64,000 bases of DNA from Escherichia phage B9-1, in the sequence record OQ420740.1. One strand, 5' to 3'. The translations under genes were made by a program, and so were the position numbers. Under the pieces are notes generated by a model. That model did no database searches. It was given only the letters and a program-made list of their open reading frames with translations, and was not told the DNA's origin. Shown here piece by piece: positions 4,440 through 32,882 of the stretch; position 1 is the stretch's first letter, and every line of letters begins with the position of its first letter.

Positions 4440-4457
4440 ACATTAGTGAGGAATATA

Positions 4458-7935: not shown

Positions 7936-7964
7936 TTGACAATGCACCATAATCATGGTAAAAT
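7936..7964 (+). promoter_or_regulatory. sigma70-like promoter (TTGACA, 17 bp, TGGTAAAAT)
   Basis: Consensus -35 TTGACA at 7936-7941, 17-nt spacer, TAAAAT at 7959-7964 with upstream TGG; about 45 nt before chaperone gene. Confidence 0.6.
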
Positions 7965-8007
7965 ACACAAATATGGTGCACAACATGACTAATAAGGATG
8001 CTATAAA

Positions 8008-11205: not shown

Positions 11206-11238
11206 ATCTAGATGGTATCGGAGTGTCCTGGAGAGGTT

Positions 11239-12123
11239 ATGCCAAGCAATATAGTTGATGAAAAAGACCTGTACAAGCCTCAAGAGGTTAAATCTCCAAA
11301 GGCTGAAAAGGCAGAGCAGCAAACTGAAAGCGATGTAAAGTACACTATGTTTGTCAGTGGTCTTAACTACGGTGGTCGTAATACGGAGATGAAGGGTAAA
11401 AACTTTACTAACGATCTTGCCATTATCTTCGATCAGGTTGAGAACTACTCTTTCAAACATTCTGTTGATAAAACTAGTTTTGCAGTGGAAGATAAATCTA
11501 CCCTGTCAGACCACGCTGTAATTAAAGATGGTGTATTTTCTTTTACTGGTAGGGTAAATACATCTCCACATATAATTTATGAGCAAAACTACATTGATAG
11601 AAACACTGACTCTAAAAACCCTGCAGCATCTATGCGACCAGGCACTGCATTGGAGGCTTTGACTGAGATTATCAATAAGCGACAGTTGGTTTCTTTGGTT
11701 ACCGAGGAGAGACTTCTTGAGAACTACATCATAACCAGTCTTTCTGCCAACAAGTCTGTTGGTGAAGGCGCTGCAATGGTGTTTGATGTAGAGCTTACAG
11801 AGTTCCGCACATTCTACTTGAATAAGGTTGTTAATGCAACTGTATACAGCAATCCTAAGAAAGTAGGCAAGACCCAGCAAAAGGGCGCTGTCAACGATTG
11901 TAAGAATGGCAGTAACGTGGGTAACAAAAGGGACACAGGAGCATTTGCAGACACTGCATCCACAAATGCCGCAGAAGAATGGCAGCCATACAAATCTATG
12001 ATGTGGACGGATGAAAACGGTGTTACTCAATCTGCTGCGGATTGGTATTATCAGGAATATGGAAGACCTTCTACCATAGTCCCATCTGAGCAGGGAAACT
12101 ACAACAAAGTTAACGGAAAATAA
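11239..12123 (+). CDS. hypothetical baseplate / distal tail protein
   Basis: ATG 11239 five nt after GGAG (11230-11233); first gene after tape measure, where tail hub-associated proteins are usually encoded. Confidence 0.5.
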   Translation: MPSNIVDEKDLYKPQEVKSPKAEKAEQQTESDVKYTMFVSGLNYGGRNTEMKGKNFTNDLAIIFDQVENYSFKHSVDKTSFAVEDKSTLSDHAVIKDGVFSFTGRVNTSPHIIYEQNYIDRNTDSKNPAASMRPGTALEALTEIINKRQLVSLVTEERLLENYIITSLSANKSVGEGAAMVFDVELTEFRTFYLNKVVNATVYSNPKKVGKTQQKGAVNDCKNGSNVGNKRDTGAFADTASTNAAEEWQPYKSMMWTDENGVTQSAADWYYQEYGRPSTIVPSEQGNYNKVNGK

Positions 12124-14202: not shown

Positions 14203-14919
14203 ATGGCTACGCTTTATAGTGATATATTGATGGACCCACAGACAGGTGATTTGGCGATAGACAAAGGTCTTGAGTTGATAGATTCAAACCAAGTAAGTCT
14301 GCGCCAGCGCCTGTGGATGAGGTTTAATACATGGAAGGGGAGCTGGTACTTTGATGAGTTGTTTGGCTTCCCTTATATGGACTTTCTCAGTAAGAAGGTC
14401 ATGAAGACTGTTCTTGATAACAAGATTATGGAAGTGGCAAGACAAGAGCCAGATGTGCTAAACATCATAAACTTCCAGTCCACTATGGATCGAAGATCGA
14501 GGACATACCAAGCGTTCTTTGAGGTTGTTACCAAGGAGAACGAGATTGTAAGGCTGGCTTTCGTAGGTCTTGATCAGTTTACCTACCCACAGCCTGATGA
14601 CGGGGCAACCTCTCTTTGTGATGATGAAGGTTGGATTAAGTGGGCTAATAAACTGTACTACCTGATCAACTTCAGATTGCCTAGAACTGGAGATGCTACG
14701 TGGTGGAACCAGTATGCTGGTCCTGAGATGGAAAACCCGATCCCTGTAGGTTCTCTGTTGACTCAGGATAAAGATCTGCTGATGACTGATGCAGAACAAA
14801 CCATTAACCGCAATACCTGGACGCTTGCTCCAGATGAGCGCGAATATTCTGGTGTTATTGCTACCTCTAATGATGAGGCTATTGCCAACCAGTCTGGTCG
14901 TGCTATTGATGTTAACTAA
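14203..14919 (+). CDS. baseplate wedge protein, gpW/gp25-like (candidate)
   Basis: 238 aa directly after spike gene; N-terminal segment (GDLAIDKG...SLRQRLWMRFNTWKGSWYFDELFGFPY) resembles W/gp25-type baseplate proteins as recalled. Confidence 0.35.
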   Translation: MATLYSDILMDPQTGDLAIDKGLELIDSNQVSLRQRLWMRFNTWKGSWYFDELFGFPYMDFLSKKVMKTVLDNKIMEVARQEPDVLNIINFQSTMDRRSRTYQAFFEVVTKENEIVRLAFVGLDQFTYPQPDDGATSLCDDEGWIKWANKLYYLINFRLPRTGDATWWNQYAGPEMENPIPVGSLLTQDKDLLMTDAEQTINRNTWTLAPDEREYSGVIATSNDEAIANQSGRAIDVN

Positions 14920-18231: not shown

Positions 18232-21200
18232 ATGGCTGATATTAAAGTTGTCAGAATTGAATCTCTTCCTGCCACTACCGCAGTGACAGAGGATGATTAC
18301 CTGGTTGTTCAACAACCAGACCTGACCCGTCGTGTGAAAATTGGCGATGTTGTCCATGTGGATGGGACTGTTTCTCATGTAATCTCCTTTAAGGAAGGTG
18401 GTAAGTTAAACGGCCCAATGGATTTTGCCTACTTCGAAGAGGAAGATCTATACCTGCGTTGGAAAGGCGAATTTCCACACACTGTTCCTGCACTGTCTTC
18501 ACCATATTCTGATGGTGGGATTACCGATGCTGCATGGATGGTATATACAGACCCGTCCTTAAGGGAGGAGCTGGAGTCTACCATTGGTGCGTCTATGATT
18601 ATGACAGCCGAAGGGCAGTCTGTCCAGGATGTAATGGATGTTACTGTTCAGACAGCCAACGATGCTAAAGCACTTGCACAGCGGGTAGATTTTGGTACAG
18701 TACATACTGTGGGCGATGTTGTTCACCTTGTCAACTTTGTTGGCCCTGCAGTTATTGAAGAGGGACGAACCACTAACTATCCTTCCGTAGCAGCTGGTGA
18801 AAAATTTCTGAATGGTGTGGTATCTCGTCGTGATACTACAACTGTTGATGGTATTTTCCGTGGCGCTACTTCCGGAGCCATGTATACCATTGCAGTAACA
18901 AACGGTGTGGTAACAACAAAAAGAATAGCCCTTCGTGATGAATTTAAACGCCTGGAGGCAAATAATCCAACAAGAACAGTTATCCGTGCTGGGGATGATG
19001 TAAACACAGCAGGGTACTTGCAGCTTGATGCAACAGGCCGTTGGGGTATGTGGAACCAACAGACAGCTTCGTGGCAACCTCTTGCTATAGAGCAGGGCGG
19101 CACAGGAGCTAGAGATGCCGCAGGTGCACGCATTAACCTAGGTGCTTTCTATAAGCAACGTGCAGCCCTTGAGGCAAATTTCAATATCAATAACCTGACT
19201 GGTAATCAGGATGGTGTATACTACCAGCCTATGACTGCTAATGCAACTGAGGCAAATGGTTACCCTGCGGGTTCTGGTGCGGGTCACCTAATTGTTTGGC
19301 AGAACAATGCTAACGGCGGCACAGGCTGTCGTCAGGAATACTACCCATTCTCTAACGTAGATGTTTGGTATTTGAGAACCTATCAGGCCAACACAAACCA
19401 GTGGACTGCATGGCAGCCGATGGTCAGACCTCGTAACGATGAGACCTTTAGATCGCACATCGGTCTTGGGTCTAGGAATTCTCCTACCTTCGGGCACCTT
19501 TACTTATCTCAAAGTTCTGCTGATGTCAAGTCGGCATCTGGCATTGTTAACGGGGACAAGTACAGTGCTGACGGTGTCCTTGAGCATGGGTATAGGATCT
19601 ATTCCGAGGTAAGAAACGACAATAAGGCGTGGTTAACAATCCACCTGCACAAAGGTGCAAAAGGATCTGAAACTCATAGATATTTAGGTTTCCGCGAAGA
19701 CGGCGTATTAGACTGCCCTAAATACATGCAGGTTGGGGATCTTACTGGTCAGCTGACAAACTGGGGACTCGGAGAATGGATCCGTAGTTCAGGAGCAGAA
19801 AGAGGGTTCTGGGGATCCAAGAAAGCCGCCAAGATGGTCATCTGGGATGGCGGGATGGATGAATCCGGTAATGGTACTCTAGAATGGGGTGTTTATAACA
19901 ACCGGAAGGCCAAGTGGGAACCTTTACCTCAAGCCGCAGGTGGTACTGGGGCTACAACTCTAGCAGATGCTCAGAATCTGTTCAAAGTTCCTATAGCAGC
20001 AGGTGTAAAAGACTTCTTAACACTGCCAAGAACCGCAGGAATGGAAGATGGGAAATACTACCCGATCATCGTCAGAACAGATCCGTACTATGCTCCAGCA
20101 ACTGGCACTGATATTACCATAGTTACCAGATCGTCATCTGGAAATGACCCTATGAACTGTGCTACCTTACAGTGTCACTATAGAACTGGAGGATGGACAG
20201 ACAGAGGAGGCTCTTTCTACGGGGTAGTAAATTTCTACCAGAATGAAAAAGCAATTCTTGGGATGGTTGCTCCAACAAGGGGTAAACAAGAGTATGTTGC
20301 TTTCTATGTGGAGGCTCGTGCTTTCCCTGTCAGCATATACGCAAGTAGAAATGTTGTCGAAGTGTTTACCAGAGAGCAAGATTATCAGGTCGGCTCTGTA
20401 ACAAACAATCAGGACGGTGTTAAGTTCGTTTCACCTCTCCAGTCGGCAGACTTGAATCTTGCTATTCTTGGAGATAACAATACAAACACCAGACCTATTG
20501 TTGACTTCAAAGGCACCTCTGGGTTCTACACTGGCGGCGGCACACAGTGGCACTATATAGGCACTGCTGAGCGCTATGCAGTGATGAGCAAAATGAACAT
20601 GCCAAAAGTCGAGCTATGGGCAGACGGTCTTGACTATTTGTGCTACGGCAGTCCTAGAAAGGCGTTATTCTCTAATGCAGGATTCCAGTGTGCATCAGAC
20701 GGGACAGAAGACCTGACTAACGGTACGTTTACCTCTAAATGCGGTAATGGTGCTGGCCTCAAAGGACAGGCAGAGTTCAGATCTACTCCAGAAGCTGGTC
20801 AAGTTATTGTTCGTGATGTTGTAGGTTCTGCTCACAGATTCTACAATTTCAACAAAGATGGTACTTTCTCAGCACCGGGTGGTTTTGTATGTCATACTGG
20901 TGCAGATTGGAACAATCAGTTCGGGAATAATAATCCGTCCAAAATACTGGCTGGCAATGTCAACGGACCTGAAGGTTCAATGGTTGTTGGCGGGTTGTCT
21001 GTGGCATTTTCTGGAAACTATGCTTTCCAGATGGCAGGCCGTTTAGATCAGCTGTACACCCGTTCCATAGAGCAGGGTAACCACAGAGCGTGGAACAAAG
21101 TTATTCAGCACCGTGGTCAAGGGTTGGGTACTAGTGACCTTAACGATTACAAAGCGGATCGCGAAGGTATTTACCATCAAGAGGCAAATGCCAACGCCAC

Positions 21201-22671
21201 AGCGGAAAGACACTATCCACCAGGGCAGCAGATGGCTGGTACGCTGATCGTGCTTAGAAACTCTGCCAACGAGGGTACTGGGTGTGTCCAGATATATAAA
21301 ATGTATCTTGGTGGGACGTGGGAAAGGTATTATAATAACACTGGCAGTGGGATGAACTGGAGCCCTTGGAAGAGAACTAGCTTCCCAGAAAGTACAACTG
21401 CCCCAGTTATGCCAGATCTGTGGCTACCTTTAACCTCTAACCTGAAACCTGTGTTAGGTGAGGGGGAGATGATCTTCTCCAGACCTTCTACCGCAACCTA
21501 TTTCACTAAGCGTGGTGTTATGGCTGTTGCACAAGCAAACCAACCACGTTTCGAAAGAGATGGGCTGCTTATTGAAGGGCAAAGGACAAACCTAATGCTT
21601 AATAGTGAGGACCCAAGTAAGTGGGGGGCAAGTCAACAGATCACTGTTGGTAGCACTGTAACAAACACTAATGGAACAAAAGGTGCAAGATTTACAGTAA
21701 ACACCATATCCGGTGTAGAAACAACAGCGTTAAACCTAGCTACGGTTCCAGCCACCAGGGGTGCCGATGTAACAGGTGCTGAGAAATTCTGTACTGGGTC
21801 TATTATTGCAAGGGGCGGTAAAGCTCACCAAAGACTGCGTGTAAGATTCGACATGTACGACGGGTCCACCACAGTATTTCAAGGTGATGCTTATGTCAAC
21901 CTGTCAACACTTGAAGTTAAAACAACAGGTGTCGCAGCTGGGAGAATTAAAGTAAAAGCTGAGAGATGGCAAACAGCCGGACCTGCTTGGATAAGAGTTG
22001 TTGCTACGTTTGAGGCAGTGGACTCTGACATGAATATTGGGTGCCAGTTCCAGATTGCCCCACCGGATGGTTCTCAACATGCCGTAGGGGATTGGGTTGA
22101 CGTCGCAATACCTCAGTTTGAGTTAGGATCTTGTGAGTCCTCGTTTATCCCTACAGGGTCTTCACCAGTGACTAGGGCAGCAGACCTTTGTAAATTCCCA
22201 ATGACTGATAATTTAGCACCTAGACCGTTCACCATCGCCGCTACGGTGGATGCCAACTGGAGAGGTTGGGGAAAAGCTCCTAACGCAGCTCCTAGAGTTA
22301 TTGATACAGAGGGCCACCAATCAGGTGCTGCATTTATCATGGGATTTGGCTCTGCAGCAAATATTGCAGAAGATGGTTATCCATATTGTGATATTGGCGG
22401 TTCAAACAGACGTGTCTATGAGATGGCTAAAACACGTAAATTGAAAATTGGGTTCAGGATAAAAGATGACGGTAAAACCTGCTCTTTTGCTAACGGATTG
22501 GTGAGTACGGAAACGCAATCTTCTTGGGAATTCCTGGCAGGAGGCGCTCTCATCCGTCTCGGAGGTCAAACGGCGACAGGTGAAAGACATTTGTTTGGTC
22601 ATATTAAAGATGTAAGAGTTTGGAACTCTGCATTGACCGACACCCAGCTTATGATGGAGAGTGTTGAATAA
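18232..22671 (+). CDS. long tail fibre protein with internal repeats and LamG-like C-terminal domain
   Basis: 1479 aa; N-terminal domain shared with ORF 14929; two copies of a 60-aa repeat (19237-19425, 21181-21377); two QGGTGA motifs; C-terminus ...HLFGHIKDVRVWNSALTDTQL resembles the LamG/concanavalin-like signature. Confidence 0.6.
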   Translation: MADIKVVRIESLPATTAVTEDDYLVVQQPDLTRRVKIGDVVHVDGTVSHVISFKEGGKLNGPMDFAYFEEEDLYLRWKGEFPHTVPALSSPYSDGGITDAAWMVYTDPSLREELESTIGASMIMTAEGQSVQDVMDVTVQTANDAKALAQRVDFGTVHTVGDVVHLVNFVGPAVIEEGRTTNYPSVAAGEKFLNGVVSRRDTTTVDGIFRGATSGAMYTIAVTNGVVTTKRIALRDEFKRLEANNPTRTVIRAGDDVNTAGYLQLDATGRWGMWNQQTASWQPLAIEQGGTGARDAAGARINLGAFYKQRAALEANFNINNLTGNQDGVYYQPMTANATEANGYPAGSGAGHLIVWQNNANGGTGCRQEYYPFSNVDVWYLRTYQANTNQWTAWQPMVRPRNDETFRSHIGLGSRNSPTFGHLYLSQSSADVKSASGIVNGDKYSADGVLEHGYRIYSEVRNDNKAWLTIHLHKGAKGSETHRYLGFREDGVLDCPKYMQVGDLTGQLTNWGLGEWIRSSGAERGFWGSKKAAKMVIWDGGMDESGNGTLEWGVYNNRKAKWEPLPQAAGGTGATTLADAQNLFKVPIAAGVKDFLTLPRTAGMEDGKYYPIIVRTDPYYAPATGTDITIVTRSSSGNDPMNCATLQCHYRTGGWTDRGGSFYGVVNFYQNEKAILGMVAPTRGKQEYVAFYVEARAFPVSIYASRNVVEVFTREQDYQVGSVTNNQDGVKFVSPLQSADLNLAILGDNNTNTRPIVDFKGTSGFYTGGGTQWHYIGTAERYAVMSKMNMPKVELWADGLDYLCYGSPRKALFSNAGFQCASDGTEDLTNGTFTSKCGNGAGLKGQAEFRSTPEAGQVIVRDVVGSAHRFYNFNKDGTFSAPGGFVCHTGADWNNQFGNNNPSKILAGNVNGPEGSMVVGGLSVAFSGNYAFQMAGRLDQLYTRSIEQGNHRAWNKVIQHRGQGLGTSDLNDYKADREGIYHQEANANATAERHYPPGQQMAGTLIVLRNSANEGTGCVQIYKMYLGGTWERYYNNTGSGMNWSPWKRTSFPESTTAPVMPDLWLPLTSNLKPVLGEGEMIFSRPSTATYFTKRGVMAVAQANQPRFERDGLLIEGQRTNLMLNSEDPSKWGASQQITVGSTVTNTNGTKGARFTVNTISGVETTALNLATVPATRGADVTGAEKFCTGSIIARGGKAHQRLRVRFDMYDGSTTVFQGDAYVNLSTLEVKTTGVAAGRIKVKAERWQTAGPAWIRVVATFEAVDSDMNIGCQFQIAPPDGSQHAVGDWVDVAIPQFELGSCESSFIPTGSSPVTRAADLCKFPMTDNLAPRPFTIAATVDANWRGWGKAPNAAPRVIDTEGHQSGAAFIMGFGSAANIAEDGYPYCDIGGSNRRVYEMAKTRKLKIGFRIKDDGKTCSFANGLVSTETQSSWEFLAGGALIRLGGQTATGERHLFGHIKDVRVWNSALTDTQLMMESVE

Positions 22672-23003
22672 TGAATACTTTTACCCTTGGGTTTACTGGT
22701 AGGGAGGATTTTAACGGTTTCATGGACGAAATCGGCTTTTACGAGAATGAGGTGTTGCAAAACACCCTTCTTGTAGAGGTTGTCGGGTTCATTTACACAG
22801 AAACTGAAGACACTTATGAGGCCGAGGATGAGTTTGGCAACATGGTTGTCTACCCAGTTTGCGAGAAAAGTAAATTGTTTTATGTCAACGTTCTGGCTCT
22901 GGACGAAGATGCAGAAAATATCATCTCTAAAAGCGGAAAAATTGTAGATCCGATAAGGTTGAACATGTTCGACCCATCAGTATCTACCTTGGAAGCACTT
23001 TAA
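22671..23003 (+). CDS. hypothetical small acidic protein, possible fibre chaperone
   Basis: 110-aa ORF overlapping fibre stop (TAATGA), followed by terminator. Confidence 0.4.
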   Translation: MNTFTLGFTGREDFNGFMDEIGFYENEVLQNTLLVEVVGFIYTETEDTYEAEDEFGNMVVYPVCEKSKLFYVNVLALDEDAENIISKSGKIVDPIRLNMFDPSVSTLEAL

Positions 23004-23016
23004 AGTATAAAGTATT

Positions 23017-23047
23017 GCCCTCGCTTCGGCGAGGGCTTTTTGTTTGT
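23017..23047 (+). terminator. rho-independent terminator
   Basis: Stem GCCCTCGC / GCGAGGGC, loop TTCG, then TTTTTGTTTGT. Confidence 0.75.
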
Positions 23048-23048
23048 A

Positions 23049-23077
23049 TTGCGTATTAACTTAAAATCTGGTAAAAT
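23049..23077 (+). promoter_or_regulatory. sigma70-like promoter (TTGCGT, 17 bp, TGGTAAAAT)
   Basis: -35 at 23049-23054, -10 TAAAAT at 23072-23077 preceded by TGG; about 30 nt upstream of ORF 23109. Confidence 0.55.
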
Positions 23078-23108
23078 AACTATCATAATTGTTTAACCTG
23101 GAGGCATA

Positions 23109-23699
23109 ATGTTTTTATGGGAAAGACCTAGATATCTTCCAGATATTAGATTGGAGTTGCTGGCAGATATTGTTACGTTTAAAAGCCCGTTTACAGGTAA
23201 GACGCAAAAAGTAACCTATGCCACGCCCAACTGGAAAGGAACTTTGACGGTTTCCAATATAAGTGAGTCCCAGCTATTGGAGCTTAAAAGTTTTGTTGAT
23301 CAGGTTTACAAAGATGGAAACATTTTTCTTATCAAGGCTTATGGTCATTCAGTTACTTCCAATGAGCCAATCGCTCTAGGACCAACTGGTAATGACGATT
23401 TTTTGAAGACGGTTGGTTGGGAACCGAACAGAGATATAGTCAGGGCTGGGGATAAAATATCTGTCAATGATGAGTTGAAAGTTGTGACATCCTCAGTGCG
23501 AAGTGATGGTGTGGGGGCAGCTGTTATAAACATATCACCAAGACTTAGAAAACCTATTGCCGCAGGGGATACTATGAAGATAATAACTCAATCTCCGAAG
23601 GGTAGATTTCATATCAGGGATCTCTATAAGATTAAGCAAAAGGTTGATGCTATGCAGAAAGGTGATAATATAGTTATCAACTTTTTTGAGGATTTCTAA
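23109..23699 (+). CDS. distal tail protein (first gene of lambda/GTA-like tip cassette, candidate)
   Basis: 196-aa ORF with RBS GGAGG; first of a 196/183/141/1279-aa set whose sizes and order resemble GTA g12-g15 and lambda M-L-K-J. Confidence 0.4.
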   Translation: MFLWERPRYLPDIRLELLADIVTFKSPFTGKTQKVTYATPNWKGTLTVSNISESQLLELKSFVDQVYKDGNIFLIKAYGHSVTSNEPIALGPTGNDDFLKTVGWEPNRDIVRAGDKISVNDELKVVTSSVRSDGVGAAVINISPRLRKPIAAGDTMKIITQSPKGRFHIRDLYKIKQKVDAMQKGDNIVINFFEDF

Positions 23700-23700
23700 G

Positions 23701-24252
23701 ATGATAAGAGCGCCATTAGATAATTTATTTCTTGAAAAGCTAGAGCTTGATAGTGTTGAGATCTTAATTGCCGCAAAGCTAGAGCTGCCAACAGGAACTG
23801 TCAGGGTGTGCTCAGGCACTGGTGTTGTGGTGATTGAGGGGCAGCATTTTATAGGGATAGGTGGATCAGCAACATTGACTGCTGTATCTGAGAAAGATGC
23901 CACCAACTTTGGGTCTGTGGTAGCAACATTGAACGGGTTTGATCCCAAGTATGTAGGTGATCTGCTGAAGACGGAGTATTCGGGTTGTCGTGCCACGTTG
24001 TATATCACGGCTATGGAGAATGGTTTACCTGTTACAACCAATGGCTTGTTTGACGGCCTTATAACAGACATGGCTATTCAGACAGGGGAGAATAGTGCTT
24101 TGTCCATATCCATATCTTCCATCTTCAACAGCTGGTTAAGAGGTTTTCCTTATCGATACACAGAGGAGAGCCATAGCTCAAGAAACGATAATGACAGATT
24201 TTTTAAATATGTGGATCAGGTGGCAAGCCGCCCGATCATTTGGGAGGTTTAA
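23701..24252 (+). CDS. distal tail protein (gpL / DUF2163-like position)
   Basis: ATG 23701 right after upstream stop; 183 aa; Gly-rich beta-type composition; call is from position only. Confidence 0.35.
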   Translation: MIRAPLDNLFLEKLELDSVEILIAAKLELPTGTVRVCSGTGVVVIEGQHFIGIGGSATLTAVSEKDATNFGSVVATLNGFDPKYVGDLLKTEYSGCRATLYITAMENGLPVTTNGLFDGLITDMAIQTGENSALSISISSIFNSWLRGFPYRYTEESHSSRNDNDRFFKYVDQVASRPIIWEV

Positions 24253-24677
24253 TGAGCACACACCCTCGTTTAGTGGACTGGCAAGAAAGATTGTGGAAAG
24301 TGTTTGACGAAGAAGCCACCGTCCCGTTTGAATGGGGATTCCACGATTGCTGCACTTTTGCGGCTAAGTGTGTTGATGCCCAATACGGAACAGATTTTCT
24401 TTCTAACTTTGAAGGAACGTATAAAACAGAGTTGGAAAGCAAAAGATGGTGCATGCTTCGTTTCAAAACCACACATCTGCCTACTATTTTTGATCTCTTT
24501 TTGACTCGACTGGATACTCCTAAACAGGTTCAGCGTGGTGATATTGTTATTTTCGAAGGTCTGAACGGGCTCACCGCTGGTGTGTTCTGGAACAACCAGA
24601 TTTGGGCGAAAGGTGATAAAGGGATCTTTATGTTCGACATGAAAGATTCTATCGTTGTTGATGTCTGGAGGTATTAA
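24252..24677 (+). CDS. small NlpC/P60-like tail protein (gpK / GTA g14-like, candidate)
   Basis: ATG 24252 overlaps upstream stop (TAATG); contains WGFHDCCTF (candidate catalytic Cys in a D-C context) and GDIVIFEG; about 141 aa as for phage NlpC-family tail peptidases. Confidence 0.35.
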   Translation: MSTHPRLVDWQERLWKVFDEEATVPFEWGFHDCCTFAAKCVDAQYGTDFLSNFEGTYKTELESKRWCMLRFKTTHLPTIFDLFLTRLDTPKQVQRGDIVIFEGLNGLTAGVFWNNQIWAKGDKGIFMFDMKDSIVVDVWRY

Positions 24678-27600
24678 TGCCAATTGCAATGATTGATAAC
24701 ATCGTTGCTTCTGCAAGATCTTCGAGCTATGACTGGAACGCATCCAAGGCAGCTCTGGCTGACAGCCTGAACACTGTTACCACCAGAACCCTTGATAAGA
24801 TTTTCGAAGGCAACAAATCTTACAGAAGTCAACAAGATAGACAAAAACTTCTCAGATCTTCTGCTGCACCTTGCTCTGTAGTATATGGGAAGACACGCAC
24901 ATCTGGATTGCTTGCGTTTTTAGAGCAGGACAGGGACAGAACCCTTCATTGTGCTATTGTTCTTGCCAATCATCCCTTGGAAGGTATAGAAGATATACTT
25001 ATCGACGGTAATCCTATTTCCTCGTATGGGGATTTGGTATCGTGGGAGTTGCATAATGACAGGAAAACCTCTGATCCTTTCATGGGCACACACTGCCCTT
25101 CGTGGTCACCAGACATGATAGGTAGAGGGATCAGTTGGCTACGTGCCAGCTTTAAGTTTGACCCTAACAAGTTTCCTTTTGGGTTGCCAAACGTTACACT
25201 CGTCAAGGTTGGTAAAAAATGTTATGATCCTCGTATCAGTAAAGAGGTGTATACCAACAACGCTGCCTTGGTGATTCTGGACTATCTAAGAACGTACCTT
25301 AAATGTCCTGACGAAACCATCAACTGGGAGTCCTTCAAGGAAGCTGCCAACATATGCGACGAGGCTGTAAAAAACGCGGACGGAACCAGTGAGCGCCGTT
25401 ACACCATTAATGGTGAGTTCGACATGGACGAAGCACCAGCAAGTATTATGGCAGAAATGCTGAAGGCTTGTGGTGCAGACCTTAGCTATGTAGCTGGCAA
25501 ATACGGTCTGCTGGTAGGTGCATACTATGGCCCGGCAACAATGACACTGAGTGAGGACTGTGTTTGCGGTGAGGTTAAGATCTATCCTGAAGCCTCCTTC
25601 GACAAAAGATCAAACACAATAACTGGGAGATTCACCAGTCCAACCAAAGGGTATTCTGAAACAGACTTCCCATCGGTGTTCGTACCTGAATGGGTAGAGA
25701 AGGACGGAGAAAGAAAGATAATTGATATAGATTATCGTTTTGTTACCAGTCCTTATCAGGCTCAGCGTGTTTCCGCAATATTCTTAAGACGTGCCAGAGC
25801 TGGCAGGATTATTGAAGTAACCTGCAATATGAGGGGTTTTAAATTTAAGCCTGGGCGTTACGTTACGATGGACCTCCCAAGTATTGGTATAGTGGGCCAA
25901 GAAATGAGGGTTCTTGAATGGGAGTTCACCAAAAAGGGCGGTGTCAAGGTAAAACTCCGTCAAGATGCTAAAGAGTGGAATGATGCCACAGGGCAACTTC
26001 CGGATTCTGGAGATGTGGATATTCCGATATCCCCGTCCGGTGTAGCTCAACCGCAAAACTTCAGATACTCTGTTCTTCAAGCTGGGGAAGTAACTCATGG
26101 TGTTTTGGCTTGGGACAACGTTGGAACTTATGCTCAAAATATTGTGCAGGTAAGAAAGAACGGAGAGATTATTTGGACAGCACAAACAGTCGAGCAGTTT
26201 GTCCGCGTAGAAGGATTGACCAAAGGGTCATACACAGCAACCGTGGTTGCAACATCTTATAAGGGTGGTGTATCTCCAGAAGCCTACTGCGAGTTCAACA
26301 TTCAAGCACCTGAAGCTCCTGTTTCTGTAGAAGTTAAGCAGGGATACTTTGCTATCACCTTGATTCCGCACAGCAGGGACTTAGCAAGTGTAAGCACCCA
26401 GTATGATTTTTGGACATCTGGTATGACAAGGTTGCCGGACACAAGTGATGCAACCGTTACTTCAAAAGCCACCCGTATGGGTGTTGGTTCAACTTGGACA
26501 TCTGAAGGTCTGCAGAACGATAAGATTTATTATTGGTATATTCGAACCACAAACGCTTTTGGTAGTTCTCAGTTTGTAGAATGCGCTGCACGCTGCTACA
26601 CCTCTATTGAAGATTTGATGCCTCAGATAGATGCTGAATTTAAAAAGACAGAAACTTATAAAGAGTTGATGAGCACTTTAGATTCCTCTATCGAGGAGGT
26701 TGAAAATCGTGTCACAGAGCTTAACAAGTACATGGACGGAAGGGTAGATGAGGCATTCCAACAACTTGGAGATAGGATAGGTGCGGTAGTTACAGAGACA
26801 ACTCAGAAGTTTGAGGATGTCAATGGAAATATCACAGCTCTGGATAGGAAACTTGTTGCTGCACAGAACAAGTTCACCAACGATCTGAACACTGAAAGTG
26901 GAAGACTGGCATCCCTGATCGAGACAACCAATAAAGCAACCACTGATCTTCTGAACAAAAAGACAGAGGCTTTAGACGAGAAATTGGTTGCAGCCAAAGG
27001 GGAGTTGGTAGAACAAATAAGTGGTGTGGAGAGCGGATACCTTGCCGGAGATAAAACTCTAGATGGCAAGATCAATACCCAGAGAACGGAACTTGATGCA
27101 AGCATCTTAAGCACCAACCAGGCGACAGTGGATCTTCTCAACAGGACATCTGAAACTCTGGATCAAAAGATCAGTCAGACAAACGCGACGGTATCTAAGA
27201 ACTATACCACCCTTGATGGTAAGATAACTACCGCAAAAACTGATCTCAATACCTTGATTGCCAATACCAACAAGGCCACCACAGATTTGTTGAATCAGAA
27301 AACCTCTGCACTGTCGGAGCAGATAACTTCTGCACGTGGGGAAATTTCTACCAACAAACAGGCGATTAAGGATTTAGATGGGAAGCTGACCTCCACAAAA
27401 ACAGCACTGGACGCTACAATCTCCGATACCAACAAAGCAACCGTGGATCTTATTAACGGCACAGCGTCAGCTATTCGTCAAGAACTTGCTGTTGCTAAGC
27501 AGGAGATCATTGATGATGTCGGTGATGTGTCAGAGCTTAGAGCTGCAGTAGCTACAACATCTAAGGCTGTGACAGACTTAGAGGGCAAAGTAAATGCTCA

Positions 27601-28516
27601 ATGGGGCACAAAAATACAGGTAGACTCCGCAGGGAATAAGTATGTGGCAGGTATCCAGTTAGGCATGGAAGGCTCTGGAGGCCAAGTTCAGTCATATTTC
27701 ATGGTTAGCGCAAACAACTTTGCGGTATACAACCCAGGCAATGGAACAGCAACCCTTGCTTTCGCAATCAAGAACAACCAAGCGTTCTTGAAAGACGCTT
27801 TTATAGAGAACGGCACGATCTCTTCTGCCAAGATCGCGCAAGAAATTTCGTCAAACAACTACGATGGCAATGGGTACCACAAATACGGTTGGTATATTAA
27901 CAAGAACGGGCACGCCCAGTTTATGGATGTGTGGGTGAAAGGTAACATCAACGCTAGTGCAGGTAACTTCACAGGGGCAGTTAACGCCACCAGTGGTACC
28001 TTCCGTGGGGATGTTTATGCCAACAATGGTAGCTTTAGAGGGACCATAGATGCAACAGGAGGTACATTCCGTGGACGTGTAGAAGCTTCCGTTATCCGTG
28101 CTAACCAGTTCGAAGGTGCGATTGTTGCACACAGGACTTACGGAGATTGTGCTCCAGTATATAACTCGCAGCAAAGGGTTTGCCGTTGGAGGTGGAGATA
28201 TGTGGACAACGTGCAAGGCCAAGGTAAAAACGTAACATTCTTCTTTAAACTGAACGGTACACTTGCTAATTCTCAATTAAACGCGTGGATAGCAGGTCAT
28301 CAGCTGCTTGCTGGCAAGAAGTATTTTAATAACAACGATGGCATGTGTGCAGTTGGGATAACAGGTCTAGGTGAACAAACTATAGACATTATTATCGAGA
28401 TTTACACACCCTGGTCAACAGGGAACGTGACAGGAGTTACAATATCTTGTCCTACAGTCGTTGTAAGTCGTTCTAACTCAAGTTTCCAGGGACCTTGGAA
28501 CGAGTCTCACGACTAA
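24677..28516 (+). CDS. central tail fibre / host-specificity protein, lambda J-like (candidate)
   Basis: 1279 aa; four tandem 45-aa repeats in a helical stalk (about 26830-27600); C-terminal segment QWGTKIQVDSAGNKYVAGIQLG...FMVSANNFAVYNPGNG resembles the conserved region of J-type host-specificity proteins as recalled. Confidence 0.5.
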   Translation: MPIAMIDNIVASARSSSYDWNASKAALADSLNTVTTRTLDKIFEGNKSYRSQQDRQKLLRSSAAPCSVVYGKTRTSGLLAFLEQDRDRTLHCAIVLANHPLEGIEDILIDGNPISSYGDLVSWELHNDRKTSDPFMGTHCPSWSPDMIGRGISWLRASFKFDPNKFPFGLPNVTLVKVGKKCYDPRISKEVYTNNAALVILDYLRTYLKCPDETINWESFKEAANICDEAVKNADGTSERRYTINGEFDMDEAPASIMAEMLKACGADLSYVAGKYGLLVGAYYGPATMTLSEDCVCGEVKIYPEASFDKRSNTITGRFTSPTKGYSETDFPSVFVPEWVEKDGERKIIDIDYRFVTSPYQAQRVSAIFLRRARAGRIIEVTCNMRGFKFKPGRYVTMDLPSIGIVGQEMRVLEWEFTKKGGVKVKLRQDAKEWNDATGQLPDSGDVDIPISPSGVAQPQNFRYSVLQAGEVTHGVLAWDNVGTYAQNIVQVRKNGEIIWTAQTVEQFVRVEGLTKGSYTATVVATSYKGGVSPEAYCEFNIQAPEAPVSVEVKQGYFAITLIPHSRDLASVSTQYDFWTSGMTRLPDTSDATVTSKATRMGVGSTWTSEGLQNDKIYYWYIRTTNAFGSSQFVECAARCYTSIEDLMPQIDAEFKKTETYKELMSTLDSSIEEVENRVTELNKYMDGRVDEAFQQLGDRIGAVVTETTQKFEDVNGNITALDRKLVAAQNKFTNDLNTESGRLASLIETTNKATTDLLNKKTEALDEKLVAAKGELVEQISGVESGYLAGDKTLDGKINTQRTELDASILSTNQATVDLLNRTSETLDQKISQTNATVSKNYTTLDGKITTAKTDLNTLIANTNKATTDLLNQKTSALSEQITSARGEISTNKQAIKDLDGKLTSTKTALDATISDTNKATVDLINGTASAIRQELAVAKQEIIDDVGDVSELRAAVATTSKAVTDLEGKVNAQWGTKIQVDSAGNKYVAGIQLGMEGSGGQVQSYFMVSANNFAVYNPGNGTATLAFAIKNNQAFLKDAFIENGTISSAKIAQEISSNNYDGNGYHKYGWYINKNGHAQFMDVWVKGNINASAGNFTGAVNATSGTFRGDVYANNGSFRGTIDATGGTFRGRVEASVIRANQFEGAIVAHRTYGDCAPVYNSQQRVCRWRWRYVDNVQGQGKNVTFFFKLNGTLANSQLNAWIAGHQLLAGKKYFNNNDGMCAVGITGLGEQTIDIIIEIYTPWSTGNVTGVTISCPTVVVSRSNSSFQGPWNESHD

Positions 28517-28525
28517 CCTTTAAAG

Positions 28526-28550
28526 CCCCGCTTCGGCGGGGTTTATTTTT
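28526..28550 (+). terminator. rho-independent terminator
   Basis: Stem CCCCGC / GCGGGG, loop TTCG, then TTTATTTTT. Confidence 0.75.
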
Positions 28551-28559
28551 ATGCTCAGA

Positions 28560-28588
28560 TTGACTATTGTTACAAAATTTGGTAAAAT
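28560..28588 (+). promoter_or_regulatory. sigma70-like promoter (TTGACT, 17 bp, TGGTAAAAT)
   Basis: -35 at 28560-28565, -10 at 28583-28588; followed by GGAGGAG RBS and GTG start at 28622. Confidence 0.55.
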
Positions 28589-28621
28589 ACCTTGTAGAGA
28601 TTTTCATACCGGAGGAGTGAC

Positions 28622-30112
28622 GTGGCTAAGTATGGATTGACAGAGGCTGGTTTCGTTATACCAACTCTAAATGACCTAATCGTTGAAACTAAGCAAAGCC
28701 TGATCCGTGCTTTTGGCGAAAACTTCAACGTACAAAGTAACTCCGTTGCAGATAAGCTGACCACTATCTTCAACGAGCGAGAGTATCAACTTATTCTTAT
28801 GGCAGCATCTGTATACGCATCGCAGACGCTGTATGGGGCAGAAGGTATTTACCTTGATGAACTTCTTGGAAGGCAAGGTATTTATCGAAGAGGCCGTTCT
28901 AAATCATCAGGTACTTGCCAGTTGACAATTAACACAACTGTGCCGTACAATATGATTTATGATTCCAAAACCTACACGCTGGACAGTGGCAACTTTGTTC
29001 TTAGCAACGATGTGCAGGTGGCGGGAAATCTTATTGCTCACAGAATAAACGCTCCAGACCTAAGAATTGGGAAATACAACTTTCAAATTACCAACCAGAC
29101 AGATGGAAGTATCAAAACAAAAAGTCTGGTTTTAACAGATAAGGCTCTGGACTCTTCTGATTTGCCAAGCTTTTACGGCGAGATTAAGCAATTCATTGTC
29201 GATAATACAACCCTGCTGAATGATGATTTAATTCAGATAGATATGTTGACAGGGACGTTGTGGATAGGGTACAATTCGAATCTTGATCAAGTTGGACTTA
29301 ATAGCAGGGTAGATTTCAGAGTATCCCCGATTGTAGGGGAAAGAACTATCACCCTAGATGTTATCGCTAACGAGGCTGGTGAGCTGTCAAGAGAGGCAGA
29401 AACCGTGACAACAATGTCACCTACTCCCAGTGGATTTATCAAGCTTACCAACCGAGAAAGATTCAATGAGGGCAGGGATGTTGAGAAAGACTCTGAGTAT
29501 CGCCTAAGAGCTTCCAGCACTAAGCAGTTAACATCTAAAGCTACCCGCCCTGCAATTCTTAGCGCTGTAAGCGAGGTGAAAGGTGTTGAGAAAGTAAGAG
29601 TGTTCTCCAACAACACCGATAAAACGGATGCGAAAGGTATACCACCTTATAAGTTTCAAGTGGTGGTGTTTGGTGGTGCAACAGAGGATATCTGTCAGGC
29701 GCTGTATCAAACCATAGCTTGCACAAACAGAACTTATGGGAATATCTTCTACGATATTACCACATCGGACGGTCAGACTGAAAGGATTTATTACTCCAAG
29801 GCAAATACCTACCGCCTAGATGTAAGAATTACCTACTCAGGTGCTGCGCTTTCCACAACCGAAAAAGATGCCATTGTAGAGGCTCTTTTGCAGGTTGTTA
29901 ACGGACTGGATGTTGCAGATACGTTGTACAATATTCAATTGGTTGGTGCTGCATCGGCTGCTGTGTCAATAGGCAGATTTAACAGACTTGTAATTCAAGT
30001 CAAACCTGTGGGGGCCTCTGATGAAGCTTACACCACAAACGATATTGTTGCAAACATGACTGAGGTGTTTGATCTAGACGAAAGTAATATAACTTTCCAA
30101 CAAACTATTTAA
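28622..30112 (+). CDS. baseplate J-like wedge protein (candidate)
   Basis: 496 aa, GTG start; N-terminal MAKYGLTEAGFVIPTLNDL and later AEGIYLDELLGRQGIYRRGRSKSSG resemble the Baseplate_J family pattern; followed by gpI-like and fibre genes as in P2/Mu. Confidence 0.45.
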   Translation: MAKYGLTEAGFVIPTLNDLIVETKQSLIRAFGENFNVQSNSVADKLTTIFNEREYQLILMAASVYASQTLYGAEGIYLDELLGRQGIYRRGRSKSSGTCQLTINTTVPYNMIYDSKTYTLDSGNFVLSNDVQVAGNLIAHRINAPDLRIGKYNFQITNQTDGSIKTKSLVLTDKALDSSDLPSFYGEIKQFIVDNTTLLNDDLIQIDMLTGTLWIGYNSNLDQVGLNSRVDFRVSPIVGERTITLDVIANEAGELSREAETVTTMSPTPSGFIKLTNRERFNEGRDVEKDSEYRLRASSTKQLTSKATRPAILSAVSEVKGVEKVRVFSNNTDKTDAKGIPPYKFQVVVFGGATEDICQALYQTIACTNRTYGNIFYDITTSDGQTERIYYSKANTYRLDVRITYSGAALSTTEKDAIVEALLQVVNGLDVADTLYNIQLVGAASAAVSIGRFNRLVIQVKPVGASDEAYTTNDIVANMTEVFDLDESNITFQQTI

Positions 30113-30123
30113 GGCGGTGAGAT

Positions 30124-30810
30124 ATGGCAGAGATTAAGTCGGATGTCAACCACATCCACACTCTGCCAGATTTTGTTCAGGGAGGTCTTGATTACCTCCC
30201 TGGGGATTTTCTGGCTGAGAAGGTTAATTTAGTCACATTCTTAACCGTGTACCTTAAAAGGTTGGAGAATGTTGATAAAATGCTGGTAGGCTTGGCTGAA
30301 GGAAGACTGCTTAACAATGCCAGCGGGAGATACCTTGACGAAGTTGGTAATCAACTTGGTATTCTTAGGAATGGTCTTTCAGACGCGGATTTTCGTGCTA
30401 CGCTGATTATTCAGCAGGCAGCATCATCAAGAGGTGGTACTCGCGAAGATGTCATCTCCACCTTACGACAGTTGTTCGGAAGAGATAATTTCGATACGTG
30501 GAAAGGTGACAATTTCAGGTTTGACATAAACATTAGAAAAACTTGCTTTGACATATTGCAGTCTATCGACCAGATCTTAGATATGCTGCCATTGCCTTGT
30601 CATTTGCGTCTTACGGAGTCGCAAGGGCAAGCTTTTGGTTTTGAAGGAGACTCTACAGCTCTCGGCTTCGGATCAGTGTGGGAAGAAAACCAGTTCGGGG
30701 TTGGTGGGCTGGCTACTTTGCTATATGTTCCTGACGTAAGACCTGATTGGGATACCACAACTATTTATTGTGAAAGTATTACAGTAAACGCAACTAGACA
30801 GGAGGGTTAA
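30124..30810 (+). CDS. baseplate/tail protein, gpI (DUF2313)-like (candidate)
   Basis: 228 aa after J-like gene; motif YLDEVGNQLGILRNG resembles the conserved L-D-x-W/V-G-x-x-L-G core of P2 gpI-type proteins. Confidence 0.35.
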   Translation: MAEIKSDVNHIHTLPDFVQGGLDYLPGDFLAEKVNLVTFLTVYLKRLENVDKMLVGLAEGRLLNNASGRYLDEVGNQLGILRNGLSDADFRATLIIQQAASSRGGTREDVISTLRQLFGRDNFDTWKGDNFRFDINIRKTCFDILQSIDQILDMLPLPCHLRLTESQGQAFGFEGDSTALGFGSVWEENQFGVGGLATLLYVPDVRPDWDTTTIYCESITVNATRQEG

Positions 30811-32882
30811 TGGCAACAGCTGTTTTTAAACCTTACCGTGATTACTCTACGATGGCTGCACGGTTTCATTACCGCACAGTTCAGGATACTGCAGTTCCGG
30901 GTAGGGATTATGATCATGTTGAGGGTGATGTAACTATCCCGGTTGGGGCAACCAGTATTGAGATCCCTGTAGAAATTGTTGACAAATTGCCAAACAGGTT
31001 GCCAAGAAGCTTCTTTATGGAGTTTTCATCAAACTCCCAAGGGGTTATGATTGGAACACAAAGAGCGAAATGTACAATAGTTTCAGATGAGAATCTTGAC
31101 AGAATATCTTGGGATACCGTTGAGGAGAGAATGTTTCACCCAAGATACTGGGTTACAACCACGCAGCAGACTGAAAGCACCTGTATTGTTGCGGATAATA
31201 ACTGCTGTATTAACCGTTTAGTGTCAAGAACATATGGAGGCATGGCTGGGTGCATTTGGGAAACAGTTGACAAGTATGACCATTTCGGCATTGGATTTGA
31301 TGATCACTACGAGATGAGAAACACCAAGCTTTGGTTCAGAATGTCAATAACCAATGCCAGCAACTTCTCCACCCCTGAAAAGATGATTATGACTGTAGAC
31401 CTTGTTGATGGTACAATCATCTATGTTCCTTTAGCTCAATATGCTGTCAGCATCTCAGAGGATAAGAATGTTGCAGAAATTCATATTGATTTCGAGGACT
31501 GCGTCGGGATGGACCAGAACAACAACATGATGGGTGTTGATCCTCGGCAGGTGAGAAGGATTTTAATACCGCTTATGCCTAAAGATTGGGTAAGTAATAG
31601 CACAGACCCAAGAACGGAAAATGTAGAGTGTGAGCTGCGTCTAGATCTGCTTCAGCCGGACACAGGCTGGAAAATGATGCAACTTAACAATATCCAGGTG
31701 AAAGAGCACGACGTCGGGATCTGCACAGCATATGACGATATGTGGAACGTATCCCCTTTAAGGGTGTTGAGCAATATCAAGCGTCTGGGCTATACCGGAA
31801 CCATAAATCATTATGTTGGTATGAGTCATTATTATGACTACACATGGTCAGGAACCCAATGGTCTATAAACAAAACAGGAGCTCTAAACGCTGCAGCTTA
31901 TAAATGGCATGATGATTTTATGTACAATGCCAAACGACATGACTTCGACGTTATGCAGTCTGTAAGCTTTGAGCTTTATAGCGATGCCTGCCCGTTGGAA
32001 TGGACCCAGAGAGACTGGAACGATAACTATGCTAAAACAGGCTATACGCCTTGTAGTTACCTCCTGTCTCCAACCATTGAAGAGGGTATGAATTTCCTTA
32101 CTGCAGTATTTAAGAATTTTGCATCAGCCGCTATGAGAAACAACCTGCCAGTGATTATGCAGATTGGTGAACCGTGGTGGTGGTTCAATACCGATACTCG
32201 TAAGCCTTGTATTTATGACTACCCTACAAAGCAGGCGTTTTATGATGAGACTGGTGAATATGCACTAGACATTGGGACTATTGACGATCCTAAAACTGGC
32301 GGTGTTTATGACAAGTATGTAGCATTTTGTCGTGGTAAGCTTGGCGCTCGTATTGTAGCCATTTCAAAGGCAATAAAAGCACACGCTGCATCGGCTCAGA
32401 TGACAGCTTTACTGTTTTTCCCCACTATTATGGAAACCGAGCTTACGCAAAAACTGAACCTTGCTGACCAATATAAAAAGGAAGCAGGTGCTCTTGATTT
32501 CTTCTGCACTGAGTGCTACGATTGGGTGATGCAGGGAGGTATTGAAAAGGCAAAAGAGTCTGTAAACATACCTATCGTTAAGTTAGGTTGGAAACCGTCT
32601 GAAATACAATACCTTGCAGGGTTCGTTCCTAGCAAAGAGCTTGCTCCGGTATATGGCTACGACCCAACCAGGAATTACCAAGAATTTTTATGGAGATGTA
32701 TTTGCGGAAACATGGCAACTATAGAGTATAGATACCCTGAGGTAAAACAGTATGTGTGGGCATACCCGCAAGTAATGTCTGACAGCATCACTGTTACCGC
32801 CAGAGATTCTACCGTTCTGCACATGGGGCAGGTTGCTCTAAAAGGGTATGTAGAAGATGTTGTTCCGCCAGACTTCTCATAA
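30810..32882 (+). CDS. tail-associated protein with N-terminal Calx-beta-like domain and large enzymatic-looking domain
   Basis: 690 aa; aa 14-58 (AARFHYRTVQDTAVPGRDYDHVEGDVTIPVGATSIEIPVEIVD) matches the Calx-beta pattern; remainder Trp/Tyr/Asp-rich. Confidence 0.45.
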   Translation: MATAVFKPYRDYSTMAARFHYRTVQDTAVPGRDYDHVEGDVTIPVGATSIEIPVEIVDKLPNRLPRSFFMEFSSNSQGVMIGTQRAKCTIVSDENLDRISWDTVEERMFHPRYWVTTTQQTESTCIVADNNCCINRLVSRTYGGMAGCIWETVDKYDHFGIGFDDHYEMRNTKLWFRMSITNASNFSTPEKMIMTVDLVDGTIIYVPLAQYAVSISEDKNVAEIHIDFEDCVGMDQNNNMMGVDPRQVRRILIPLMPKDWVSNSTDPRTENVECELRLDLLQPDTGWKMMQLNNIQVKEHDVGICTAYDDMWNVSPLRVLSNIKRLGYTGTINHYVGMSHYYDYTWSGTQWSINKTGALNAAAYKWHDDFMYNAKRHDFDVMQSVSFELYSDACPLEWTQRDWNDNYAKTGYTPCSYLLSPTIEEGMNFLTAVFKNFASAAMRNNLPVIMQIGEPWWWFNTDTRKPCIYDYPTKQAFYDETGEYALDIGTIDDPKTGGVYDKYVAFCRGKLGARIVAISKAIKAHAASAQMTALLFFPTIMETELTQKLNLADQYKKEAGALDFFCTECYDWVMQGGIEKAKESVNIPIVKLGWKPSEIQYLAGFVPSKELAPVYGYDPTRNYQEFLWRCICGNMATIEYRYPEVKQYVWAYPQVMSDSITVTARDSTVLHMGQVALKGYVEDVVPPDFS

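Follow-up and report, generated by a model that had tools for sequence, protein, structure and literature searches.

The window analyzed here is a stretch of 64,000 nucleotides from Escherichia phage B9-1 (sequence record OQ420740.1), and our subject is a set of four consecutive open reading frames (ORFs) at positions 23109-28516. A preliminary description, made from the letters alone, had proposed that these ORFs match the distal-tail genes of siphoviruses and gene transfer agents (GTAs) in size and order, and that they lie inside a phage with an apparently contractile tail. Its coordinates and sizes (196, 183, 141, and 1279 amino acids) are correct, and the ORFs are on the + strand. We find that the four genes are, with high confidence, a complete siphovirus tail-tip set of the GTA/megatron type.

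The four genes and their transcription unit

The features of the locus, in order along the + strand, are:

23017..23036, +: intrinsic terminator at the 5' boundary, GCCCTCGC-TTCG-GCGAGGGC followed by a T-run; it is strong and closes the upstream fibre operon
23069..23078, +: TGGTAAAATA, an extended -10-like motif, the likely phage late promoter of the module
23109..23699, +: ORF1, 196 amino acids (aa), gp40 of phage rV5
23701..24252, +: ORF2, 183 aa from the ATG (the longest ORF starts at TTG 23686), rV5 gp39
24252..24677, +: ORF3, 141 aa from the ATG (the longest ORF starts at TTG 24240), rV5 gp38
24677..28516, +: ORF4 (J), 1279 aa, rV5 gp37
28523..28544, +: intrinsic terminator at the 3' boundary, directly after the stop codon of J
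28580-28589, +: second copy of TGGTAAAATA, after the 3' terminator; we take it to drive the wedge operon

The stop and start codons of the four ORFs abut or overlap, and the ORFs are translationally coupled. Their lengths and ATG starts agree with the deposited annotations of EmilHeitz, HMD-6, and rV5, where gp40 to gp37 are the same genes with identical lengths (196/183/141/1279 aa). These are real genes and not chance ORFs, because they have strong matches to PHROG and Pfam families (the PHROG matches span 5e-49 to 7e-163 across the four ORFs), because more than 110 genomes carry them, and because they are under purifying selection (see below).

The module has its own transcription unit, bracketed by terminators, and the motif at its 5' end suggests that it is expressed late. 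There are four copies of TGGTAAAATA in the window (4431-4440, 7956-7965, 23069-23078, and 28580-28589), where 0.19 would be expected. All four are on the + strand, just 5' of structural operons, and two directly follow a terminator. The motif looks like the late-promoter element of this phage.

Judging from sequence, the window belongs to Vequintavirus, the genus of rV5/FV3-like myoviruses, which have genomes of about 136 kb and contractile tails. Escherichia phage S127 BCL3 is 98.5% identical to the block at the DNA level, and the block is present, with the same synteny and at 92-98% nucleotide identity, in more than 110 genomes of the genus. The contractile-tail setting was described correctly: the window encodes a sheath protein (DUF3383), a tube protein, a tape measure protein, a tube initiator, and a hub, as well as a spike N-domain of the P2-V/phi92 type, a sheath initiator, and a Baseplate_J wedge protein. 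From the end of the tape measure gene, at 11132, to the start of the module, at 23109, is about 12 kb, and the myovirus hub, spike, sheath-initiator, and fibre genes occupy this interval.

Identity of the four proteins

ORF1 through ORF4 are collinear with the genes that follow the tape measure gene in Seuratvirus, with ORF1 matching the first of these, and the proteins are 33%, 40%, 45%, and 54% identical (the last over the whole of J). In Seuratvirus SeppeHuegi, the cassette (bas24_0017-0020) encodes proteins of 194, 194, 144, and 1040 aa and directly follows the tape measure gene. The same four-part architecture is found in RcGTA, whose baseplate proteins g12-g15 are a Dit, a hub, a peptidase, and the megatron (Bardy et al. 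2020, PMC7296036). Together with the profile and fold matches below and the many intact cassettes in other genomes, this bears out the view that the ORFs are a siphovirus/GTA distal-tail set. The label "lambda/GTA-like" is half right. The GTA/megatron type holds, but only J is shared with lambda: lambda M (Phage_min_tail), L (Phage_tail_L), and K (JAB plus NLPC_P60) belong to other Pfam families than ORF1-3, and lambda I has no counterpart, as the module has no fifth gene.

For the three small proteins, the families that the preliminary description named were not matched directly: when ORF1-3 were scanned with Pfam and NCBIfam, no match to DUF2460, DUF2163, NlpC/P60, or the families of lambda M, L, and K appeared, even with E up to 10. 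Searches of the solved structures with single sequences of ORF1-3 gave noise, and profiles of 14-16 sequences gave non-significant or borderline matches.

ORF1 matches phrog_1302 ("distal tail protein") at 5e-49. Its AlphaFold2 (AF2) model has a predicted local distance difference test score (pLDDT) of 77.5, and the top 10 Foldseek matches of the model are all pb9 from T5 or DT57C (2e-8 to 2e-5); next come Dit-type proteins from Chi, JBD30, and R4C. We identify ORF1 as a distal tail protein (Dit) with a predicted T5 pb9-like fold. It has a weak match to the Dit of a GTA-like phage (E = 0.001). The proposed DUF2460 assignment failed, both for ORF1 (E up to 10) and for 28 members of its family, and hhalign of the ORF1 family against lambda M found nothing.

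ORF2 matches phrog_2048 ("tail protein") at 1e-67. An exhaustive HMMER search gave 637 representatives of the ORF2 family, while a word-indexed search gave only 3 proteins. A 95-sequence profile of ORF2 matches residues 16-179 of pb3 in the PDB (2.7e-7 for DT57C and 2.5e-5 for T5). ORF2 itself has no direct match to PF09931 ("Baseplate hub protein, N-terminal attachment domain"), but 6 of its 95 distant relatives do, with a best E value of 6e-5. We take PF09931 to be the renamed accession of DUF2163, the family that the preliminary description had suggested. By hhalign, the ORF2 family aligns over its full length to the "hub protein" of a GTA-like phage (probability 94%, 9e-8); nothing was found against lambda L. 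These comparisons point to a hub N-terminal attachment-domain protein, equivalent to residues 1-142 of RcGTA g13 and to residues 16-179 of T5 pb3. ORF2 is the attachment domain alone; the RcGTA protein also has Fe-S, OB, and clip domains.

The ORF2 proteins of Vequintavirus differ from their relatives at the C terminus. A tail with the motif WGSKKDAPGFxY is present in 76 of 77 siphovirus homologues and is absent from ORF2 in both of the Vequintavirus lineages that we compared (the one in the window and a divergent one, described below). As a side observation, ORF2 covers only positions 173-359 of the 390-position phrog_2048 profile. Some relatives of 323-493 aa have the ORF2-like domain at the C terminus and an extra N-terminal region, which would explain the partial coverage; these long relatives may be Dit-hub fusions.

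ORF3 matches Pfam DUF6950 (6e-34) and phrog_2134 (7e-49). Its family aligns by hhalign to the "peptidase" of Mesorhizobium phage P1 (probability 99.4%, 7e-22), which is itself a DUF6950 protein (7e-47). We assign ORF3 to DUF6950 and regard it as a putative "peptidase"-like assembly protein in the g14/K slot. As for the expected NlpC/P60-like protein, there is no Pfam match of ORF3 to NLPC_P60, and the alignment to the C40 domain of lambda K is weak and at the level of motifs only (E = 0.004, probability 9%). In the enterobacterial branch of the family, D-C and QRGD are invariant, including the cysteine, but the position of K's catalytic histidine is not conserved; a GTA-like relative has a histidine nearby. 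The "peptidase" may be catalytically inactive in this branch.

ORF4 can be divided into six parts:

24677..24817, +: J residues 1-47, hydrophilic here; by position, this part corresponds to the megatron's "iris/penetration" segment
24818..26083, +: J residues 48-469, tail-tip hub domains with the J/pb3/megatron fold
26084..26632, +: J residues 470-652, two Ig/FN3-like domains (Ig_J and Ig_J_second)
26633..27544, +: J residues 653-956, long coiled-coil stalk with matches to coiled-coil families; the variable part
27545..27967, +: J residues 957-1097, Phage_Tail_Tip (central straight fibre) domain, Pfam 2.4e-38
27968..28516, +: J residues 1098-1279 and the stop codon; distal C-terminal domain that presumably binds the receptor

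The claim that this protein has a J-type C-terminal region was right. It matches the PHROG "central tail fiber J" at 7e-163 and Pfam's Ig_J, Ig_J_second (1e-30), and Phage_Tail_Tip, and it aligns directly to residues 666-850 (the Ig part) and 844-990 (the Phage_Tail_Tip part) of lambda gpJ, with E = 3.6e-28. The first 500 residues have no direct alignment to lambda gpJ; they are 57% identical to a "J-like tail tip protein" from Queuovirinae. When we compared an AF2 model of residues 1-560 to known structures with Foldseek, the top 15 matches were all siphovirus tip hubs, including pb3 of DT57C/T5 (2e-18), the T1 tip (2e-15), lambda gpJ (7e-15), JBD30, and the RcGTA megatron (6tba, 9e-9). The preliminary description had called for the comparison to gpJ, and it gave the predicted likeness. 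The domain matches and the model identify ORF4 as a hub plus fibre of the J/megatron type. It shares the hub fold, the Ig domains, and the central-fibre domain with lambda gpJ, while the RcGTA megatron lacks the lambda-type fibre of Ig_J and Phage_Tail_Tip.

Two family assignments for J need qualification. The Phage-tail_3 family (PF13550), which had been suggested for this protein, is below threshold here (E = 0.11, residues 313-413), but it is found in many J homologues that are 49-58% identical, and the 2013 Pfam release matched it to rV5 gp37. The NCBIfam model lambda_TipJ (NF049904) scores 150 bits, as compared to a cutoff of 1950, so J is not an equivalog of lambda's protein.

T5 and DT57C provide the best structural matches for ORF1 (pb9), for ORF2 (residues 16-179 of pb3), and for the hub of J (the rest of pb3). 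A single T5 chain of 949 aa combines the counterparts of ORF2 and J, and the sequence identity is only 10-15%.

The N terminus of J is the second place where Vequintavirus departs from its relatives. In siphovirus orthologues, the first 45 or so residues form a transmembrane-like segment that is rich in Ala, Ile, Val, and Gly. The highest Kyte-Doolittle hydropathy in a 19-aa window is 1.44-2.30 in all 65 of the siphovirus orthologues, versus 0.31-0.36 in both Vequintavirus lineages. The N terminus of the megatron of a GTA-like phage is likewise hydrophobic, and so is that of RcGTA, where residues 1-46 are the "iris/penetration domain," which plugs the tail channel and is proposed to form a pore in the outer membrane (PMC7296036). 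We considered whether the N terminus of J had been replaced, as BLAST alignments begin at residue 48, and rejected this: a multiple alignment shows a homologous segment whose composition has changed.

The coiled-coil stalk is the part of J that varies most between lineages. It is about 216 aa longer than in the J of Seuratvirus, and against the divergent Vequintavirus lineage its sliding identity is 47-57%, with gaps and with indels between the lineages (1279 vs. 1199 aa for the whole protein). The C-terminal domain (residues 1098-1279) has no Pfam match and is 92-97% identical within the genus; its sole distant similarity is to a fibre protein from siphovirus ESCO3 (33%).

Distribution, origin, and selection

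Among siphoviruses, the cassette is usually found as four tightly packed collinear genes, of about 195, 190, 135, and 880 or more aa. It is intact in 72 of the 80 siphovirus-type loci that we recovered from IMG/VR with the hub of J, and the other loci are cut by contig ends; all 80 are on contigs whose size fits a siphovirus or a prophage. Vibrio phage K381 (83 kb) and the GTA-like Mesorhizobium phage P1 have the same layout, with the cassette after the tape measure gene. We checked if large carriers might be myoviruses, and rejected this, as the layout of Vibrio phage K381 is plainly that of a siphovirus.

Among the contractile-tailed phages that we compared, the cassette is restricted to one genus. 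We searched 50,697 phage records for matches to the N-terminal 500 residues of J. There were 116 records at 95% identity or above and 348 below 60%, with none between. All of the 116 records are Vequintavirus, either by name or mislabelled, and in the group below 60%, every carrier locus that we inspected has a siphovirus layout. The four genes are absent from the loci of Mydovirus, Certrevirus, Phapecoctavirus, and Plateaulakevirus, where the genes for the hub, the wedge, and the sheath initiator are orthologous. The sheath-initiator and wedge genes of Certrevirus adjoin each other, and the other three genera have fibre or spike genes of other kinds in the slot. The module is also absent from Septuagintavirus W70 and from the published inventory of the phi92 baseplate; its absence from phi92 rests also on the Phapecoctavirus locus and on the gap in identity.

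In a neighbour-joining tree, the J hub of Vequintavirus lies inside the siphovirus radiation, as the sister of Queuovirinae (Seuratvirus, such as SeppeHuegi, and Nonagvirus, such as the SE1/9g-like phages), which have the same four genes in the same order, with similar sizes and 33-54% identity. Because the J hub nests among siphoviruses, and because of the gap in identity (at least 95% or below 60%), the transfer appears to have been from a siphovirus to Vequintavirus. It is most economical to suppose that an ancestor of Vequintavirus captured the cassette once, in a part of the baseplate operon where the cargo varies. The copies now differ in setting and in detail. In Queuovirinae, the cassette comes after the tape measure gene, and its products form the tip through which DNA exits a non-contractile tail, whereas the Vequintavirus copy is not next to the tape measure gene and is in a phage with another type of tail. 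The Queuovirinae copy has a hydrophobic N terminus on J and the KKDAPGF tail on ORF2, whereas the Vequintavirus copy has neither.

A divergent lineage (L008-L010; Logan DRR842911 and contig JZQG01000004.1 of NCBI GCA_002973135.1) gave us a measure of how the cassette has been maintained. It is Vequintavirus-like and retains the module and its synteny, and it shares both of the derived changes (the altered hydropathy of J's N terminus and the loss of ORF2's tail). Most of its proteins in this region are about 80-92% identical to those of the window (61% for ORF3), and its J has 1199 aa. (One of these copies lies in a 73.7-kb contig of an E. coli genome assembly.) Between the window and this lineage, synonymous divergence (dS) is saturated, while nonsynonymous divergence (dN) is 0.115 for ORF1, 0.082 for ORF2, and 0.159 for J, in line with the true baseplate genes (0.06-0.14). 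ORF3 is the fastest of the four (dN = 0.35, dN/dS = 0.14). In alignments, the module's proteins keep all of the residues that are invariant in their families. The cassette is under purifying selection.

A possible role for the captured complex, and its neighbours

The captured complex is probably an accessory receptor-binding appendage of a multi-fibre baseplate and not a conduit for DNA, because the phage has its own parts for axial delivery, which it shares with relatives that lack the module, and because the element associated with plugging and penetration has been lost while the ring, cap, hub, and fibre were kept. We infer the assembly state, the adhesin function, and the position in the virion as follows. 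An ancestor of Vequintavirus would have taken the cassette from an enterobacterial siphovirus related to Queuovirinae, and the cassette would have been inserted into the slot for accessory fibres, with the sheath-initiator and fibre genes on one side and the wedge genes on the other, and a native late promoter would have come to drive it. The native tape measure, tube initiator, hub, and spike would still deliver the DNA. The captured complex would assemble as in the donor, with a trimer of J, a cap formed by a trimer of ORF2, and a ring of Dit, assisted by ORF3. The lengthened coiled-coil stalk and the C-terminal domain of J would reach the host surface, and the hub/Dit end would serve as the anchor. 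The loss of J's hydrophobic segment and of ORF2's tail would mark the end of the role in plugging the channel and piercing the membrane.

A more specific proposal is that the whole tip complex (the Dit ring, the hub cap, and the hub-fibre of J) self-assembles and hangs on the baseplate as a fibre, with its penetration helix stripped away. We offer this tentatively, and would sooner bet against this full version than for it. If it is true, phages would for the first time be seen to have exapted an entire tail-tip machine, and not just one fibre gene, across morphotypes, and the Dit ring, with no tail tube to stack on, would need a novel mode of docking. In broad terms, the notion of a hybrid adsorption apparatus, which was raised in the preliminary description, is plausible.

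The closest solved structure is from phi92, which has an orthologous tube initiator, plug, hub, spike, sheath initiator, and wedges, and which encodes several types of fibres in the slot where the module lies (Schwarzer 2012; Chen et al. 2026, PMC13450770). Since phi92 and its relatives in Phapecoctavirus have no Dit/hub/DUF6950/J cassette, the phi92 structure cannot show where the cassette's products are located.

Several points weigh against an accessory appendage built from the whole cassette. Neither structures nor genetics place any of the four proteins in the Vequintavirus virion. Mass spectrometry of rV5 virions detected gp37 with 4 peptides (one confident and three weak) and 5 spectra, as compared to 15 spectra for the sheath, which is thin evidence; peptides from gp38-40 were not found in these shallow data. 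Dit normally stacks on the tail tube, and there is no evident docking partner for a Dit ring at the periphery of the baseplate. If J were a mere fibre, it would not obviously need Dit and ORF3 to be retained over the long term. The AF2 model of J residues 1-560 is of moderate quality (pLDDT = 58.6), which is fit for assigning the fold and not for analyzing interfaces. Residues 1-47 of J were equated with the iris/penetration domain of RcGTA by their position and composition, without an alignment. Finally, the tree of J hubs is a simple neighbour-joining tree without support values.

Some of the same facts would fit a simpler arrangement, in which gp37 is the only one of the four proteins in the virion. 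It would be a lateral tail fibre whose former hub domain attaches it to the baseplate, and ORF1-3 would be assembly factors or adaptors that do not form a ring and a cap. The curators of BASEL call gp37 a lateral tail fibre, one of three variable fibre genes; gp37 alone of the four was detected by mass spectrometry; ORF3 evolves the fastest; and the K/g14-type protein of lambda and RcGTA acts mainly in assembly. However, ORF1 and ORF2 keep every residue that is invariant in their families and diverge no faster than true baseplate proteins do, and their counterparts in siphoviruses are structural partners of J. Also, because the mass-spectrometry set is shallow, it cannot show that small proteins are absent (nor does it give stoichiometry). 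We consider this arrangement unlikely, at roughly one chance in a handful.

Another possibility is a true hybrid tip, in which Dit, hub, and J lie on the axis of the tail, below or around the native hub and spike, so that J is a central fibre with a role in triggering or DNA exit. In all long-tailed phages, homologues of Dit and of the hub of J are parts of the axis, Pfam assigns even the myovirus's own tube initiator to Dit_like, and the cassette is complete. But the axis has occupants already: a conserved tube initiator, a hub, and an iron-tipped spike, all with orthologues in the solved phi92 structure and all common to genera that lack the module. Furthermore, J has lost its hydrophobic penetration segment and ORF2 its conserved tail, and the module is in the slot for accessory fibres, 12 kb from the tape measure gene. 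An axial position seems improbable to us.

We give very little credence to the idea that the cassette is a selfish or decaying passenger, that is, a recent and non-functional remnant of a siphovirus or a chimera of the assembly. It is true that terminators bracket the module, as in a moron-type insertion, and that it is confined to one genus. However, the synteny is identical in over 110 independently sequenced genomes, and the module is also in a lineage whose proteins are about 80-87% identical. The ORFs are all intact, with saturated dS and low dN; they are preceded by the motif for a native late promoter; and a gp37 peptide is found in virions. As for ordinary wedge or baseplate proteins of a myovirus, mislabelled because of a coincidence in size, the genes do lie inside the baseplate operon and some records say "baseplate protein," but none of the four proteins resembles a wedge protein by profile or fold, their top structural matches are exclusively siphovirus tip proteins, and the actual wedge genes, at 28622-30810, have been conserved by genera without the four genes, so we dismiss this explanation.

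Parts of this picture were known. For rV5, gp37 was listed as a "tail fibre protein (host-specificity)" with PF13550/COG4733 and with HHpred similarity to gp27-like hubs, and the best matches of gp38 and gp40 were to siphovirus PY54 (Kropinski et al. 2013, PMC3606486). That paper does not interpret the genes as a single cassette, leaves gp38-40 unassigned, and does not discuss the clash with a contractile tail. Annotation pipelines already use the names "central tail fiber J" and "distal tail protein" for these genes, and BASEL states that the assignment of genes to fibres is unclear. In the literature, we found nothing on the four genes as a complete siphovirus tip cassette, on its restriction to one genus, or on the loss of the penetration segment, and we found no structure of a Vequintavirus baseplate and no host-range mutants in gp37. 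In other words, the parts are known, and the myovirus context and the exaptation are not described in the literature that we searched.

The rV5-like phages are among the most frequently isolated phages of E. coli, and they are used in typing, in biocontrol, and in therapy cocktails. We know of no assignment of which genes build which of their fibres. Now that one "lateral tail fibre" locus turns out to hold a complete tip cassette from siphoviruses, the tips of T5, lambda, T1, and RcGTA can serve as structural models for interpreting future maps of the rV5 baseplate. The finding also shows that phages of different morphotypes exchange adsorption devices as modules, and that a module can be a complex of several proteins. 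Since the penetration helix and ORF2's tail have been lost, the cassette is a natural experiment on which parts of the tip are for binding and which are for plugging the channel or penetrating the membrane. And it is a candidate for a portable, self-assembling adhesin for engineering host range.

The neighbouring genes that bear on this locus are:

11212-12123: myovirus tube initiator, Pfam Dit_like 7e-23
14203-14919: sheath initiator, 238 aa in Vequintavirus
18232-23003: fibre gene 5' of the module, a 1479-aa allele followed by a 110-aa ORF (phrog_1361)
28622-30810: wedge genes, which adjoin the module and are kept in genera without the four genes
30810-32882: 690-aa protein adjoining the wedge genes, with TIM-barrel_NCTSP (1e-79), NCTSP_N, and Calx-beta domains

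The genome encodes two proteins of the Dit type: the native tube initiator on the axis and ORF1 of the captured cassette. The sheath initiator has 238 aa in Vequintavirus versus 177-208 aa in genera without the module, and alignments between them end at about residues 170-202; the genus-specific C-terminal extension could be a docking site.

The 690-aa protein is, by its domain content, a "non-contractile tail sheath" of the N4 gp65 type, or in other words, a receptor-binding module from podoviruses in the baseplate operon of a myovirus. Besides this protein, the operon contains Tail_spike_N adaptors of the CBA120/G7C type and a protein similar to the L-shaped fibre of T5. A mosaic operon with other captured adhesin modules fits the interpretation of the cassette as an accessory adhesin.

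The fibre gene just upstream of the module also varies. In rV5 and in lineage L008, it is a 1265-1272-aa allele with a terminal Peptidase_S74 chaperone domain, and the extra ORF is not present; the comparison indicates a swap of allelic cassettes. Lastly, 18 GenBank records (MG0656xx) that are named "Campylobacter phage," with C. jejuni as the host, are 92-99% identical to E. coli Vequintavirus in this region. These records are probably mislabelled or from contaminating coliphages.

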